Assembly: GCA_963813335.1 (NCBI GenBank)
Contig: CAWEYL010000003.1
Coordinates: 96,001 to 160,000, forward strand
Origin: an uncultured Chloroflexia bacterium
GTDB taxonomy: Bacteria > Chloroflexota > Limnocylindria > Limnocylindrales > CSP1-4
Length of the DNA stretch: 64,000 bases
Direction: 5' to 3'
The position numbers and the translations under genes are program-made. Position 1 is the stretch's first letter. Each line of letters begins with the position of its first letter. Shown here piece after piece: positions 38,988-44,469 of this stretch. Below the pieces are notes generated by a model. That model had not been told where the DNA came from and ran no database searches. It was given only the letters and a program-made list of their open reading frames with translations.

Positions 38988-39097
38988 CGGTACTGGCTAC
39001 CTCGGGCGGGCGGTTCGGCCGTGGTTCACGGCGTGGCGCCGGGACGCCCGTGGGGCGCGGGTGGCATCGGGAGGGCGCGCGCGGCGCGCGTCCCGGG

Positions 39098-39283
39098 TCA
39101 GCCGACCTGCGTTCGGGCGTTCTTCTTGCGCTTCGCTTCCTTGCGCTTGCGCTTCACGGACGGCTTCTCGTAGTGCTCGCGTCGGCGAGCCTCCGCGAGG
39201 ATGCCGCTCTGCTGGATCTTCTTGTTGAAGCGGCGCAGGGCGCTTTCGAACGTCTCGTTCTCTCCCACTCGGACTTCAGCCAA
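39098..39283 (-). CDS. rpsU: 30S ribosomal protein S21
   Basis: [17 protein letters not shown]...[14 protein letters not shown]; TTG start with GGAGGTG RBS. Confidence 0.95.
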
Positions 39284-39408
39284 TCGGTGTTCACCTCCCC
39301 AGGCCTGGAGTTCGTGGCTCTCGCGCGGGCTCGTGGCCAGCCGGCCCGACGCGTGCTCAGCGGTCCCCCGCCGAAGCCGCCGGAGTGTAGCCGAGCCCCC
39401 GGGGTCGG

Positions 39409-39720
39409 TCAAACGGTCGGAAGGTGCTGTCCGAGCACGAAGATCCAGTACGCGTCGAGCGCCGCGACCACCGCCCAGAACCCGACGATGAGCGTCGGAC
39501 GACGCAGGAAGCACTTGCTCCACGACACGCCGAGCGAGATCGAGCGCAGATACAGCCCGATCGCCACGATCGCGACGACCAGCACGAAGACCGCGGGCGT
39601 CACCAGCCACGCGATCAGACCGATCGTCCCCATGCGGCAGAACGTGAAGGCCAGCCGCTCGTACTTCTCCGGGCGGGTGAGCGGCGGGCGGGCGTAGCTG
39701 GTCGGTCCGACGGTGGTCAT
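39409..39720 (-). CDS. Small integral membrane protein (~3 TM), last gene of the lgt-like/radical SAM operon
   Basis: Hydrophobic segments; ATGA overlap with the radical SAM stop. Confidence 0.75.
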
Positions 39721-41285
39721 GCGGGTGCCTCGCTCGAGAGCGGCCGCAGGTCATCGAGGGCGATGAGCTCGCGAGCCGGGACCATGCCCGCCGACGTGTG
39801 CCGTCGCAGGCCGCCGAAGATCTGTCGGGCGCAGAACGGGACCCGGACAGGGTTCGCCTCGCCATCGGTCGAGCCGACGTGCACGCAGCACTGCTGCAGG
39901 CGCTCGATGTTCAGGGTCCAGGGGTCCATGAACGTCTTGATCGAGACCCGTTTGACCCGCAGCGCGATGTCGGTCATCGGGGCCTGGCCGCGGTCGGTGA
40001 TCCAGCGGCCGAGGCTCTTGATGAAGCCCGAGACGCCGAGGTCGCAGACCTCGCAGATGTCGAGCAGGTAGTCGATGACCTCCTTGCGGCTGACCATCGC
40101 CGTCTCCGACAGCAGGCCCGTGAGCGACTCCCAGAGCGCGTCGTCCGGGGCCAGCCGGTTCCCGAACACCGCCATCCGCTCGGCCAGCCGGTCGCGGCCG
40201 ATCAACTGCACGATCGAGCGGTGCGAGCCGTCGTCGCCGCGGACGAAGTAGGTCAACGACGAGCAGTCGGGATGGCTGCACGGGAGCGCGATGAAGTCGT
40301 CCGGCCCGACGCGGCCGGCGGTCTGCTCGCCCAGCCGGCGGATGGTCCCGGTCGTCGTCGAGCGGTCCATCGGGTCGATGGCGTGCGCCCGGCCGGTCGT
40401 GAACATGGGCTGGATCGCGACGCCGGCGACGTAGTCGGTGGCGAAGGCGTGCTCGACGACCGCGCCCACCTCGTGGTCGTTCACCCCCTTGGCGACCGCC
40501 ATCGCGAGCGTGGTGAAGATCCGCTCGCCGGTCAGGCGCTCGATGGCGAGCCGCTTCACCTCGCGCAGGTCCTCGCCGCGGTGGTACAGGTGCGTCGCGA
40601 GCTCGAAGCCGTCGAACTGGAGGTACACCTCGACGCGGTCGCGGAGGCTGGCGAGCTCGGCGAGGAAGCGGTCGTCGCGGGCGACGCGGATCCCGTTGGT
40701 GTTGAGCACGACGCGGGTCACGGGCGATCTGGTCGCCTCCCGGATGATCTCGACGATCTCGGGATGGACGGTCGGCTCGCCGCCGGACAGCATCAGGGCG
40801 TCGATCCGCCCGCCCTCCCGCTCGATCGCGGTGTCGAGCGAGCGGACGATGTGGGGCAGCCGCGCGTGGCGATTGATCCCGGGCCCGCTGCCGGCGAAGC
40901 ACGTCGGGCAGTGGAGGTTGCAGTTCTCCGTGACGTCGATCAGCAGGATGCAGCTGTGCTGCGTCTGGAGGTCGCCCAGGCCGTCCATGTAGCCCATCGG
41001 GATCGGGCGCAGGTTACCGGGCGTATCCGGGGTGATCTCACGGGTAGGGATGCGCCAGTGCTGGAGCTCCTCCCAGAGGTCGCGGTCCTCCTCGTAGAGG
41101 CTCACCACCTCGCCGTGCCCGCGGCGGCAGATCCGGCGCAGGTAGACGGCGCCGTCCATCGCCACGAGGTTGCCCTGGAGGATGTCCGTCTCGTAGTCGA
41201 TCTCGCGGTCGGGATCCTCGCTGAAGCAGCGCCCGCAGATGGTCAGGACCATCCGCAGCGGGAGATAGGGTCGGAGGGCGAGCAT
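39717..41285 (-). CDS. Radical SAM enzyme of the Tes/GDGT-MAS (MJ0619, COG1964-like) family
   Basis: N-terminal CGRC...[74 protein letters not shown]. Confidence 0.85.
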
Positions 41286-41290
41286 CGGAT

Positions 41291-41844
41291 CTAGATCGAG
41301 CCGGCGACCGGCAGGCACAGCCCGCTGATCCCGAGCAGGACGATGACCGGCACGACCAGGAGGAGTCGTGAGCGCGCGGCCGGGGCGCGCGGGATCGGGA
41401 TGCAGGGTGCGCATGACCAGGAACGAGCAGAGCAGCCCGAAGAGCAGCACGACCGTAAGGATCACCTGCGCGAACGGGCCGTAGCCGTATCGTCGACGTG
41501 CGGAGGAGGAACGGGATCGCGAAGAGGAGCCAGACGATGCCATAGGCGCCGAGGACGATCCGCCTCGCGGTCGATCGGACCGGGGCGATCGCCTCGTCCT
41601 GTCGCTGACGGGAATTGGCGAGCGCGAGAGCCTCGCGCACCTCCTCGGCGGTGAACCCGCCGGCGATCGCCGACCGCTCGATCGCGGCATCCGTGAACCC
41701 CGGCCGGATCGCCTGGATCCAGGTGACCAGCTGCTCCACGCGCGTCCCCGTCTGCCACGGCCCGCCGGGCGTGATCGGCGGTGGATCGGCGCTTCCCGGG
41801 TCGGCCGGGCCTTGGGCGCCTGCTGGCGTGCCGTCGTCGGTCAT
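41291..41844 (-). CDS. Membrane protein (soluble N-domain plus 3 TM, C-terminal ...LLGISGLCLPVAGSI); two +1 frameshifts (~41490, ~41365)
   Basis: ATG at 41844 overlaps the lgt-like stop (ATGA); hydrophobic helices join across frames into 184 codons ending at TAG 41291-41293. Confidence 0.65.
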
Positions 41845-42665
41845 GACAGTCCCTCCATCCGTACGGGGATCGGCGTGGGCGGCGCGGGGATGCGGTAGGC
41901 GTCGCGGCGGACCTGCCGGGCGAAATGCAGCAGGAGCAGGCCGACCATCGGGATGAGGACCCACTGGGGTCCGCTGAGACCGAGCGCCTGGGGCTCGTTG
42001 CCTCGGACGAACTCGACGAGGAATCGGAAGACCCCGGCCGCGAGCAGGTAGAGCTTCACGGCGTCGCCCGGGACCACGACCCGGTCCCGGTAGCGGAGGA
42101 TCACCGCGATGGCGACCAGGTTGAAGAGGATCTCGTACAGCATCGAGGGATGCATCGGGACATCGCAGCCGGGACAGCGGGCGAACGCCGCGGCGGCCGC
42201 CGGGCTGACCGAGATGCCCCACGGCAGGTCGGTCGGCGTGCCCAGCGGCAGCTCGGACAGGAAGCAGCCGATCCGCCCGATGACGGTCGCGACGGGGATC
42301 GCCAGGAGATAGCAGTCGCCGGTCGAGCGGGTGTAGCCGAAGGCCCGCTTCGAGAGCACGATCGCGATGTAGCCGCCGGCGATCGCGCCCAGGATGCTCT
42401 TGCCGCTGTGCTCGATCACCTCGCTGAACGGCTGGGTCGCGAGCGCGTCGTAGACCTCGAGGTGCTCCCAGGACGTGATCACCCGGGCGCCGATCGCGCC
42501 GCCGAGGACCGCCGCGAGCGAGATCCACACGATCGGTCCGCCGAGCCAGTCCCGCCGCCGCAGCTCCCGGTAGTAGATCGCGAGCCCGACCGTCAGCGCC
42601 AGCACCGTGAACGCGTCGTGCGTCATCACGGTCAGCGGGCCGAGCTGGAACAGGACGGGATGCAT
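41841..42665 (-). CDS. Prolipoprotein diacylglyceryl transferase (Lgt)-family paralogue
   Basis: MHPVLFQLGP, GGAIGAR, IGRIGCFL, GTPTDLPWG, HPSMLYE, FRFLVEFVR; canonical HGG replaced by SILGA. Confidence 0.88.
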   Translation of the reverse strand: MHPVLFQLGPLTVMTHDAFTVLALTVGLAIYYRELRRRDWLGGPIVWISLAAVLGGAIGARVITSWEHLEVYDALATQPFSEVIEHSGKSILGAIAGGYIAIVLSKRAFGYTRSTGDCYLLAIPVATVIGRIGCFLSELPLGTPTDLPWGISVSPAAAAAFARCPGCDVPMHPSMLYEILFNLVAIAVILRYRDRVVVPGDAVKLYLLAAGVFRFLVEFVRGNEPQALGLSGPQWVLIPMVGLLLLHFARQVRRDAYRIPAPPTPIPVRMEGLS

Positions 42666-42810
42666 CGGCGCTATCCAGTAGCCGGCATGACGACGGATCG
42701 GTCGCGGGCTCGACCGATGGACGCCGCTCCGGTCCGCACGTTACACGCACCGGCAAGGCGTCACATCTCGGCTGTTCGGGCCCGCGCCCGCGCGCTACCC
42801 TCGTTCCGCG

Positions 42811-44469
42811 ATGTCCACCCTGCTCGACCTTCTCGATCACGCGGTCACCCGCTATGGCGAGCGCGGCGCGCTCGCGCTGCGGCTTGACGACGGCTCGACG
42901 ACCGAGTGGACCTACCGCGAGCTCGCCCGGCGGGCGCGGATCGCCGCGTGGCGGCTCCGGGCGATGGACCTGGAGCCTGGCGACCGGATCCTGACCTGGT
43001 CGCCGTCGACGCCCGAGCTCCCGGCCGCCTACTACGGGGCGATGGCCGCGCGGCTGGTCCTCGTGCCGCTCGACCTGCGGATGTCGCCCGCCGCGGTGGA
43101 AGGGATCGTCGCGGCGTCGGGGGCCCGGCACCTCATCCTGGGCACGGGACGCGACGCGCCTGACCCGCGCGAGGCCGGCCTCGACCATTTCCCGACCACG
43201 ACCGTCGAGGCGCTCTGCGCCGAGCCGGCGCCCCACGACCCGGCCTTCCCGCCGGACTGGGAGTCGCGCCAGGCCGCATGGGCGCGCCCGGCCGCGGACG
43301 AGGTCTTCGAGCTCGTCTTCACGTCCGGCACCACCGGCACCCCCAAGGGCGTGACGTTGACCCACGACAACGTGGTCGCCTCGATCGAGTCGTTCCACCG
43401 GATCGTCCCGCCCATGGAGCACCGCCTGGTGTCGCTGCTCCCGCTCTCGCACCTGCTCGAGCAGGCCGTGGGGCTCTACTACGCGCTGGATGTCGGGGCC
43501 GACATCCTCTACGTGCGCAGCCGGAACCCGCGCGTCATCTTCGATGCGCTGCGCGACCAGCGCGTGACCTCGATGGTGGTGGTCCCGCAGGTCCTCGACC
43601 TGTTCTGGAGCGCCATCGAGCGCGAGGTCGCCAAGCGCGGCCGCACGGCGGCCTTCGACCGGCTCCGCTGGATCGCGCGCCACCTGCCGATGCGGTTGCG
43701 CCCGCGGCTGTTCGGTGCCATCCACGGGCAGCTCGGCGGGCATTTCCGCCTGTTCCTCTCGTCCGGGGCGTTCCTGCCGCCGTCGCTGCAGCAGGCGTGG
43801 GAGGACATCGGCGTCACGGTCCTGCAGGGCTACGGCGCGACCGAGACCGGGACCGGGACGTGCACGACGCTCGCCGACCACGGGCCGGGGACCGTCGGGC
43901 GCGCGCCCGCGGGGATCGAGATGCGCCTCGCACCCGACGGGGAGATCCAGTTCCGCGGCCGGACCGTGTTCGACGGCTATTGGCAGAACCCCGAGGCCAC
44001 CACGGCCGCGTTCACCGACGACGGCTGGTATCGCACCGGGGACGTCGGCCACCTCGACCCGGACGGCCGGCTCATCCTGTCGGGCCGGAGCCGCGACATG
44101 ATCGTGCTGCCGAACGGGTTCAACGTGTATCCGGAGGACATCGAGAACGCCCTGCGCATCGCCGGGATCCGCGACGCGATCGCGGTCGAGACGAGACCCG
44201 GCCGGATCGAGGCGATCGTCCTGACCGGCAGCGCCAGCCCGCTGCCGGGCGCCGCAAGCGCGTCCGGCGGGGTGCACCCCGACCACCCTGCCGAGATCCG
44301 GGCAAGCATCGACGCGGCGGTGAAGGCGGCGAACGCGACGCTCGGCCCGAACCAGCGGATCGTGGGCTGGCGGCTCTGGCCGGAGGACGACTTCCCGCGA
44401 ACGCACACCCTCAAGATCAAGCGCGGACCGATCCAGGCCTGGGCCGCGGTCGAGGGCGAGCGCGCCTGA
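42811..44469 (+). CDS. AMP-dependent long-chain acyl-CoA synthetase
   Basis: FTSGTTGTPKG, LLPLSHLLE, QGYGATE, YRTGDVG, GRSRDMIV...NVYPEDIE, PRTHTLKIKR. Confidence 0.92.
   Translation: MSTLLDLLDHAVTRYGERGALALRLDDGSTTEWTYRELARRARIAAWRLRAMDLEPGDRILTWSPSTPELPAAYYGAMAARLVLVPLDLRMSPAAVEGIVAASGARHLILGTGRDAPDPREAGLDHFPTTTVEALCAEPAPHDPAFPPDWESRQAAWARPAADEVFELVFTSGTTGTPKGVTLTHDNVVASIESFHRIVPPMEHRLVSLLPLSHLLEQAVGLYYALDVGADILYVRSRNPRVIFDALRDQRVTSMVVVPQVLDLFWSAIEREVAKRGRTAAFDRLRWIARHLPMRLRPRLFGAIHGQLGGHFRLFLSSGAFLPPSLQQAWEDIGVTVLQGYGATETGTGTCTTLADHGPGTVGRAPAGIEMRLAPDGEIQFRGRTVFDGYWQNPEATTAAFTDDGWYRTGDVGHLDPDGRLILSGRSRDMIVLPNGFNVYPEDIENALRIAGIRDAIAVETRPGRIEAIVLTGSASPLPGAASASGGVHPDHPAEIRASIDAAVKAANATLGPNQRIVGWRLWPEDDFPRTHTLKIKRGPIQAWAAVEGERA

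Follow-up and report, generated by a model that had tools for sequence, protein, structure and literature searches.

Tetraether synthase (Tes, or GDGT-MAS) is an enzyme of the radical S-adenosylmethionine (SAM) type that couples the tail ends of lipids through its C-terminal cluster, in a reaction whose first radical is stabilised on a sulfur atom (PMC13459092), and the available sections of two papers define it by four metal sites (PMC9433317; PMC13459092). Since 2022, no role has been proven for its bacterial homologues, and the portions consulted of three reports give their function as unproven (PMC8941075; PMC13459092; PMC13159169). According to the accessible part of its description, the Mss enzyme of Thermotoga was discovered because that organism has no Tes homologue (PMC13159169). 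For the prolipoprotein diacylglyceryl transferase Lgt, the roles of individual residues and an active site that faces the periplasm have been described (Mao et al., PMC4728403, as excerpted). Relatives of both Tes and Lgt are encoded side by side in a cassette that is the subject of this report, and that is located in a window of 64,000 nucleotides (the whole stretch of DNA analysed: positions 96,001 to 160,000 of contig CAWEYL010000003.1, assembly GCA_963813335.1) from an uncultured bacterium of the Limnocylindria, phylum Chloroflexota. The cassette comprises an Lgt-like gene, a gene for a Cys-tailed membrane protein (here called gene 2), a radical SAM gene, and a gene for a 103-residue (103-aa) membrane protein. 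Conserved in soil Chloroflexota and hitherto undescribed, this association of an Lgt-like enzyme, a Cys protein and a Tes-like enzyme points to a type of protein or lipid modification not previously known. The reading that we favour, albeit tentatively and at a probability somewhat below even, is a dedicated S-lipidation of an invariant Cys of gene 2, coupled to radical chemistry on lipid tails. Text searches of the literature found no pairing of Lgt with Tes (the supplementary tables of PMC8941075 and PMC13159169 may list Chloroflexota homologues); among the papers listed for prolipoprotein diacylglyceryl transferase together with radical SAM, none was on topic by its title and the opening of its abstract, and among those listed for Limnocylindria together with lipid there was no lipid study.

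A first-pass annotation of the window, made by a model from the sequence, had proposed a dedicated pathway involving a paralogue of Lgt and the radical SAM enzyme, and the distribution of the genes agrees with a dedicated module. Relatives were recovered from 242 genomes by a pattern scan, and neighbourhoods were counted for the best 80 of the 242. In 75 of these 80 loci, the radical SAM gene has an Lgt-like gene upstream, 67 hold a relative of gene 2, and 77 have the gene for the 103-aa protein downstream. Of the five loci that have no Lgt-like gene, four possess less than 1.4 kb of upstream flank, and L086 truly lacks it. The gene order, with its 75 occurrences in 80 loci, thus recurs more often than by chance. 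In a draw of 301 Limnocylindria genomes, which includes the unpublished G131 and G319 and in which the enzyme was called at 57% identity or more, 33 genomes carry the enzyme and 31 of the 33 also carry an Lgt of the type found in the cassette (module type), in 30 cases on the same contig; both enzyme-bearing genomes that are devoid of it are contig-end cases, and no module-type Lgt was found in the 268 enzyme-less genomes of the sample. The genes therefore form a dedicated, tightly co-inherited module which, because roughly one in ten of the sampled Limnocylindria genomes has it, is accessory and patchy and does not constitute a core membrane-lipid pathway.

A comparable arrangement is found in a second clade. 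Six of the sampled class genomes carry a different Tes-like gene (33-38% identity, with the N-terminal cluster, [Fe4S4]N) beside a different Lgt-like gene (36-43% identity, in which Y26 is replaced by His and N146 by Asp), with a small membrane protein encoded between the two, in the same order as in the cassette. The scan for this clade yielded 571 relatives, and neighbourhoods were taken from the best 80 of the 571; 37 of these loci (from Limnocylindria, Anaerolineae and Dormibacterota) reach 60% identity or more, and 29 of the 37 have an Lgt-like gene upstream; the small protein in between closes, in 25 of the 29, with a helix and a Cys that stands 6-12 residues short of the terminus. In a quick maximum-likelihood tree of 75 members of the superfamily, which is limited by its many long branches and its purely bacterial membership and has L116 of the unpublished G145 as one row, the cassette clade forms a single group (SH-aLRT 93) with a long stem, and the second clade is nested among unlinked bacterial homologues; the two Lgt-linked clades are not sisters. 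Counts of changes along this tree were set aside, because L086 is grouped there by clade although its flank has no Lgt-like gene. Judging from these sequences, the order of Lgt-like gene, small transmembrane Cys protein and radical SAM gene appears to be an independent recurrence. Both the linkage (75/80 loci; 31/33 genomes) and the reappearance of the same order in a non-sister clade therefore support a coupling of Cys lipidation to radical chemistry.

The likeness of the radical SAM enzyme to Tes extends over nearly its whole length. Residues 39-486 match GDGT-MAS (7TOL) with an E value of 7.6e-36, and an AlphaFold (AF2) model (pLDDT 79.7, pTM 0.85, with residues 372-435 at low confidence) is paired by Foldseek with 7tom and 7tol at E values of 4.6e-35 and 1.3e-34, TMq of 0.74 and 0.73 and TMt of 0.77, over 529-535 aligned columns. 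On this model, the enzyme is predicted to possess the full four-domain fold of GDGT-MAS, with its rubredoxin-like domain, N-terminal domain, radical SAM (RS) core and C-terminal domain. Of the hallmarks by which the first-pass annotation had placed the protein in the Tes family, YLQFDG, GVND(H)E and the C-terminal CC..PFC (here QQCC...PFC) are present, while the N-terminal metal site has the form C17-x2-C20...C53-x3-H57 instead of ending in CxxH; its Cys residues are kept in 71 of 73 clade rows and are invariant in alignment A5. The RS motif C122-x3-C126-x2-C129, encoded at 40899-40922, and the ligands of the C-terminal cluster [Fe4S4]C (C466, C467 and C485, together with M453) are each retained in 73/73, and C336, C341, C411 and C414 are further conserved.

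Family membership itself does not stand alongside the fold. The protein scores 182.7 bits against the NCBIfam model for Tes (NF045702; cut-off 450) and 218.2 bits against that for TrsS (NF045646; cut-off 490), its best-scoring model and a nearly full-length match, and the ten nearest 50%-cluster representatives that were scanned also fall below both cut-offs, with Tes scores of 147-361 bits. TrsS is listed as a selenoprotein family in the available part of PMC13188914; the radical SAM gene of this genome contains no in-frame TGA. In addition, the C-x3-C-x2-C triad of [Fe4S4]N, for which the reference ligands in Tes are C73, C77 and C80 plus a conserved His, is gone and is replaced in 73/73 clade members, Q109-H110-x-C112 being kept despite its loss. 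The triad is also missing in the two nearest outside clusters (P0126 and P0127); second-clade enzymes, the unlinked paralogues and almost every other representative of the superfamily retain it. By the tests applied, the enzyme thus appears to have a Tes scaffold, yet not to be Tes.

The full GDGT-MAS fold and the retained [Fe4S4]C ligands therefore argue for chemistry on lipid tails. It is very unlikely that the radical chemistry is instead directed at protein, in which case the enzyme would modify the Cys-tailed protein, for instance by forming a C-S or C-C bond on or close to its Cys or, in a variant, would join the end of a lipid tail to a Cys sulfur that replaces the cluster sulfide of Tes, the Lgt-like protein acting as a scaffold or lipid supplier. 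Such chemistry could draw on the first radical of Tes, stabilised as it is on sulfur (PMC13459092), and on the invariant Cys residues present at membrane interfaces (C134 and C164-x2-C167 of the Lgt-like protein, the Cys of gene 2, and C28 and C70 of the 103-aa protein); SkfB and other peptide maturases are also the next-best folds, though far weaker ones (TM 0.34 for SkfB, against 0.74). The whole-length match is nevertheless to the lipid enzyme alone, and the predicted topology puts the Cys across the membrane from the enzyme. Pfam, moreover, reports no SPASM, twitch or peptide-recognition domain (Radical_SAM and a sub-threshold Fer4_12 are its sole matches), and the SPASM families of NCBIfam match the RS core alone, at 25-43 bits.

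The 103-aa protein carries two invariant Cys, C28 and C70, and has a mean column identity of 48%, as opposed to 20% for gene 2. It is seen beside the clade that lacks [Fe4S4]N alone, and was not found at second-clade loci or in L089; one may speculate that it stands in for the lost cluster. No Pfam or NCBIfam family matches it, and a search with a profile of its alignment returned 1216 matches, of which the best 120 of 1216 all come from the same clade. A predicted complex of the radical SAM enzyme with this protein obtained a score of 0.00 against a mark of 0.32, a value computed without controls and carrying no weight either way. The nearest clusters in the ESM Atlas are unnamed, one of them having 478 members, most commonly from Actinomycetota, and locus L086, labelled Actinomycetes, combines the enzyme with a small protein of 43% identity and has no Lgt-like gene in its flank. 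L089 (5429-9527), a distant member at 55% identity, has its radical SAM gene immediately next to an Lgt-like gene that reads G-R-I-G-C; a two-helix protein with a zinc ribbon is encoded upstream, the surroundings include a polyprenyl synthase-like gene, and no 103-aa gene is present.

The Lgt-like protein matches PF01790 at 116.2 bits (cut-off 24.9) over 235 of 240 profile positions, and scores 64.1 bits against TIGR00544, below the cut-off of 118.9; its scores against other Lgt equivalogs are far below their cut-offs. In an alignment to E. coli Lgt (5AZB), the equivalents of R143, G154, E202 (within HPSxLYE), R239, E243 and R246 are kept: R131, which corresponds to R143, is present in 70 of 70 orthologs, and R214 with E218, corresponding to R239 and E243, in 69 of 70. 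The preservation of the phosphatidylglycerol-binding equivalents of R143, R239 and E243, together with the periplasm-facing site of Lgt, therefore supports a transfer by the Lgt-like protein.

The reference signature of Lgt, G142-R-L-G-N-F-I-N-G-E-L-W-G154, which includes N146 and to which Y26 was added, is consistently altered. It reads G-R-x-G-C-F-L-S-E-L-P-L-G in the Lgt-like protein, shifted one residue out of register, with N146 replaced by Cys in 70/70 orthologs and N149 by Ser or Thr; T-H-D stands in place of W-Y-G (Y26 being replaced by His) in 68/70. Other Lgt-family genes of relatives, placed in the same alignment, have the Asn and the Tyr in 11/11. The column of H103 (HGGL) holds Ile, Leu or Val in the module type and Tyr (10) or Pro (1) in the other Lgt genes of relatives, and is non-discriminating here. 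A C-P-G-C motif (residues 164-167) is nearly invariant in the external head region of the module-type protein, and occurs neither in the Lgt-like proteins of the second clade nor in the remaining Lgt-family genes of relatives.

The loss of Y26, N146 and the H103-column residue next to kept phosphatidylglycerol-binding Arg residues would fit an altered, perhaps non-protein acceptor, as in a pathway confined to lipids, whereby the module would make a glycerolipid with coupled tails, either membrane-spanning or macrocyclic. The Lgt-like protein would then bind and hand over phosphatidylglycerol, or shift diacylglyceryl between lipids, and the small Cys proteins would be structural or redox subunits. 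This explanation, which is a genuine possibility although a doubtful one, is in keeping with the Tes fold and the retained [Fe4S4]C ligands, and with the 103-aa protein being far better conserved than gene 2; it leaves unexplained, however, both the invariant post-helix Cys in two unrelated-looking sets of small proteins and the lipoprotein-like external domain that may follow it, and a presence in about a tenth of class genomes would be odd for a bulk membrane lipid.

The possibility that the Lgt-like gene is an ordinary housekeeping lgt, lying beside unrelated genes by chance, is extremely remote. It could be invoked because no other gene in this genome's assembled contigs (7 contigs, 2.54 Mb, 81% complete) matches PF01790; among these contigs no canonical lgt was found, although part of the genome has probably been left unassembled. 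Among the 24 same-genus genomes, however, 20 have an Lgt-family match, which in 19 is of the canonical type at 198-219 bits; in G011, the canonical-type match is partial and reaches 146 bits, and most of these genomes hold a further paralogue of 56-80 bits. The class scoring 110-116 bits is restricted to exactly those 6 of 25 genus genomes that have the radical SAM ortholog. A separate canonical lgt, whose existence the first-pass annotation had left to be checked, is thus present in the relatives and missing from this incomplete assembly. A housekeeping identity was rejected on the grounds of the confinement to radical SAM-bearing genomes, the altered signature with a score under the TIGR00544 cut-off, and the canonical lgt of the relatives; by sequence, the gene appears to be a third, cassette-specific paralogue. 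G017, a 98%-related genome of 3.3 Mb, holds three Lgt-family genes.

The candidate acceptor, gene 2, encodes a small soluble N-terminal domain followed by three hydrophobic segments and a C-terminal motif, P...G-x-C, whose invariant Cys codon lies at 41315-41317. Despite the low overall identity of the orthologs, M1, G75, G180 and C182 (L046 numbering) are invariant, and a Pro located 11 residues before the Cys is nearly so. An open reading frame (ORF) that ends at the radical SAM start was taken at 74 loci, 51 of which pass a filter for a Cys after a hydrophobic stretch; Gly occupies position -2 in 50 of the 51, the filter being blind to Gly, while position -1 is Ile, Leu, Thr, Val, Ala or Phe, and the tail after the Cys measures 5-13 residues. 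At 11 loci, the protein is extended: behind I-G-G-S/T-C come a Pro-rich linker and then a domain of approximately 150 residues with two Cys, ending in W-x-C-E/D/Q/R; by analogy, this form, with a linker and domain after the Cys, may be likened to a lipoprotein. Basic residues precede helix 1 and also lie in the segment that links helices 2 and 3, in a positive-inside pattern that suggests a topology with the N-terminus inside and the C-terminus outside, and hence a Cys at the outer face, where the active site of Lgt lies. An invariant G-x-C amid 20% identity, with its Cys predicted outside, therefore supports lipidation of this residue. No Pfam or NCBIfam family was assigned to gene 2, its 35 scanned orthologs giving merely scattered single weak matches.

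Gene 2 had been described beforehand as a membrane protein ending in TM-GLC (a transmembrane segment followed by Gly-Leu-Cys), and both its span and its Cys tail hold, although a single open frame does not: the span of 554 nt is not a multiple of 3, start and stop are in different frames, and the homologous protein is read across three frames in this assembly. Comparison with the intact ortholog of L019, from a 94%-identical relative, locates two 1-nt insertions, near 41490-41492 and near 41365. One explanation is that the module is decaying in this genome and that two frameshifts have made gene 2 a true pseudogene, so that the function of the module elsewhere would not be carried out in this organism; this is quite unlikely and would, in any case, be compatible with the other readings. 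Beyond the two insertions themselves, the closest relative, G017 (98% identical), also changes frame in the same stretch, and in the few-contig genomes G124 (C3:486051-488948) and G270 (C1:806664-809514) the radical SAM gene is in pieces, the Lgt-like gene of G124 having two in-frame TGA codons, an observation that may reflect module decay or indel errors. Against decay, an independent short-read contig of run X1, with 1 mismatch in 246 nt, does not contain the T at 41490, and its reading would mend the first break; the conserved helices and the G-x-C tail remain encoded in the shifted frames, and the other three cassette genes are intact. The few-contig genomes of the genus are also 59-92% complete, which would fit indel errors. 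The short-read contigs of runs X1, X2, X3 and X5 leave 41379-41471 uncovered, and the second break is outside contig coverage. The breaks in gene 2 are probably assembly indels.

For the favoured reading, that of a Cys lipidation coupled to radical lipid-tail chemistry, we start from the observed gene linkage, co-inheritance, motifs and fold and infer the following chemical steps, their order and the topology. The Tes-like enzyme, employing 5'-deoxyadenosyl radicals and its C-terminal auxiliary cluster, would act on the unreactive acyl-chain ends of a phosphatidylglycerol-type lipid in the inner leaflet, either functionalising or coupling them, with the 103-aa protein as a possible membrane subunit for this radical SAM step. 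The Lgt-like enzyme, with its active site presumably facing outwards as in Lgt, would subsequently move a diacylglyceryl-type group, from either the modified lipid or an ordinary one, to the Cys thiol of gene 2. The product would be a non-canonical, uncleaved membrane protein, lipidated internally or at its C-terminus.

Several points weigh against this proposal. The residues lost from the Lgt-like protein (those of Y26, N146 and the H103 column) are important in E. coli Lgt, so that it may perhaps not be a transferase, and the radical SAM enzyme is devoid of a triad that nearly all of its relatives retain. Gene 2 does not carry a lipobox (as defined in PMC12462473): it has no N-terminal signal peptide ending in [LVI][ASTVI][GAS]C, its Cys comes after the third hydrophobic segment, and the G-x-C motif carries a bulky residue at -1. 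It is, in addition, frame-broken in this assembly, with outside data contradicting only one of the two breaks, and a crude hydropathy script counts three or four segments in it, depending on how long ones are split. At 3 of the 29 second-clade loci, the small protein is devoid of Cys. The radical SAM enzyme is taken to be cytoplasmic and the Cys is predicted outside, and thus the two steps presumably cannot share one end of a molecule simultaneously. The organisms that carry the module are uncultured, and the mechanism rests on sequence and a structural model.

A bolder form of the proposal, which we regard as unlikely, may nonetheless be set out. It would represent a new protein lipidation, in which the Lgt-like transferase hangs a glycerolipid remodelled by the radical SAM enzyme, macrocyclic or membrane-spanning, on an internal Cys of a polytopic membrane protein, so that the protein would be stapled to the membrane in bolaform fashion. 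In this form, the Tes-like enzyme would have swapped its N-terminal cluster for a two-Cys membrane subunit, and in some lineages the external domain after the Cys would likewise be stapled.

The layout of the cassette is given in the table below. A four-gene operon on the minus strand had been claimed, and direct reading of the sequence bears out its coordinates, its ATGA overlaps (Lgt-like gene and gene 2 at 41841-41844; radical SAM gene and 103-aa gene at 39717-39720) and its 5-nt gap, which separates the TAG stop of gene 2 (41291-41293) from the radical SAM ATG at 41285.

Table. Genes of the cassette and its immediate flanks, with positions in the window
Feature	Position	Strand	Description	Basis
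Lgt-like gene	41841-42665	minus	274-aa integral membrane protein	ORF reading and PF01790 match
Gene 2	41291-41844	minus	Cys-tailed membrane protein, three frames here	comparison with intact L019 ortholog
Radical SAM gene	39717-41285	minus	522 aa, Tes/TrsS superfamily	NCBIfam, 7TOL match, fold
103-aa membrane protein gene	39409-39720	minus	two hydrophobic segments, C28 and C70	found in 77/80 related loci
Acyl-CoA ligase gene	42811-44469	plus	flanks cassette, divergent	
rpsU	about 39098-39298	minus	flanks cassette on other side	

The divergent acyl-CoA ligase had also been noted alongside the operon, and comparison within the genus sets it apart: orthologs of 73-82% identity are present in 4 of 5 same-genus genomes that do not have the cassette, and in 2 of the 4 module-less loci (those in which the examined stretch includes both genes) rpsU is the direct, divergent neighbour of the ligase, approximately 200 nt away. 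Because its orthologs and this adjacency occur in genomes devoid of the module, the ligase, which is found in 41 of the 80 related loci, belongs to the chromosomal backbone; it was rejected as a member of the system, its proximity reflecting synteny rather than function. Within this genus, the four genes of the cassette appear from such comparisons to have been cleanly gained or lost together at one fixed site, which lies between rpsU and the ligase.

The window has a G+C content of approximately 72%, and a 1122-aa antisense ORF (41038-44406, minus strand) that runs through the ligase and gene 2 is a high-G+C artefact that masks the real gene 2 in ORF lists. A sigma-70-like TTGACC-17-TACACT is present at 39384-39412 on the minus strand, as the sole match within 39000-43000; it extends over the stop codon of the 103-aa gene and points towards rpsU. 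The same region yielded no intrinsic-terminator-like site.

Other Tes-like genes in the class occur in different surroundings. Further Limnocylindria paralogues (L113-L117, from G061, G130, G106, G145 and G068, respectively) have no Lgt-like neighbour, and four of them (L113, L114, L116 and L117) have genes for CcdA/DsbD-like membrane proteins as neighbours and DsbA- or thioredoxin-like genes in the vicinity, a setting that hints at a thiol-redox context. In loci at 55-60% identity to the second clade (Acidobacteriota, Pseudomonadota, Ktedonobacterales and others), an Lgt-family gene lies within 5 kb in 1 of 43. The link to brGDGTs (branched glycerol dialkyl glycerol tetraethers) or diabolic-acid-type lipids that the first-pass annotation had drawn is thus unsupported, and, because the module is unshared with the Acidobacteriota-type homologues, the brGDGT question is narrowed: the Limnocylindria should not be taken for brGDGT candidates because of this radical SAM gene alone.

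The tie of two separate bacterial Tes-like clades to an Lgt-like enzyme and a Cys-tailed protein provides, for some of these homologues, a testable hypothesis regarding their substrate. If the proposed lipidation is correct, the chemistry of Lgt reaches beyond the classical lipobox pathway, and a protein or lipid modification exists in abundant, uncultured Chloroflexota of soil and freshwater.

Among the known systems, Lgt (PF01790, TIGR00544; 5AZB) differs from the cassette protein in its head region, which is shorter in the latter and carries C-P-G-C, in the likely acceptor, which in the cassette has neither an N-terminal signal peptide nor a lipobox, and in that no LspA or Lnt gene forms part of the cassette. 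Mss of Thermotoga is similar in being a radical SAM enzyme that joins bacterial fatty-acyl tails (PMC13159169; PMC13459092), and the available text of its description sets it apart as a separate radical SAM family (PMC13159169). TrsS (NF045646) belongs to the same superfamily and gives the cassette enzyme its best NCBIfam score, still far below the cut-off; the Acidobacteriota-type Tes homologues, which have been proposed as brGDGT enzymes, also belong to it and, unlike the cassette enzyme, keep [Fe4S4]N. With respect to Tes itself (GDGT-MAS, MJ0619; 7TOL, 7TOM), the cassette enzyme has 22% identity, Cx3H in place of Cx2H, a 12-residue insert in the rubredoxin domain, no triad of the C73/C77/C80 type, a bacterial host and an Lgt-like gene in its neighbourhood, and it shares with Tes the whole fold, the CX3CX2C motif, the rubredoxin-like site, YLQFDG and GVND(H)E, as well as the CC...C ligands of the C-terminal cluster and a counterpart of Met439.

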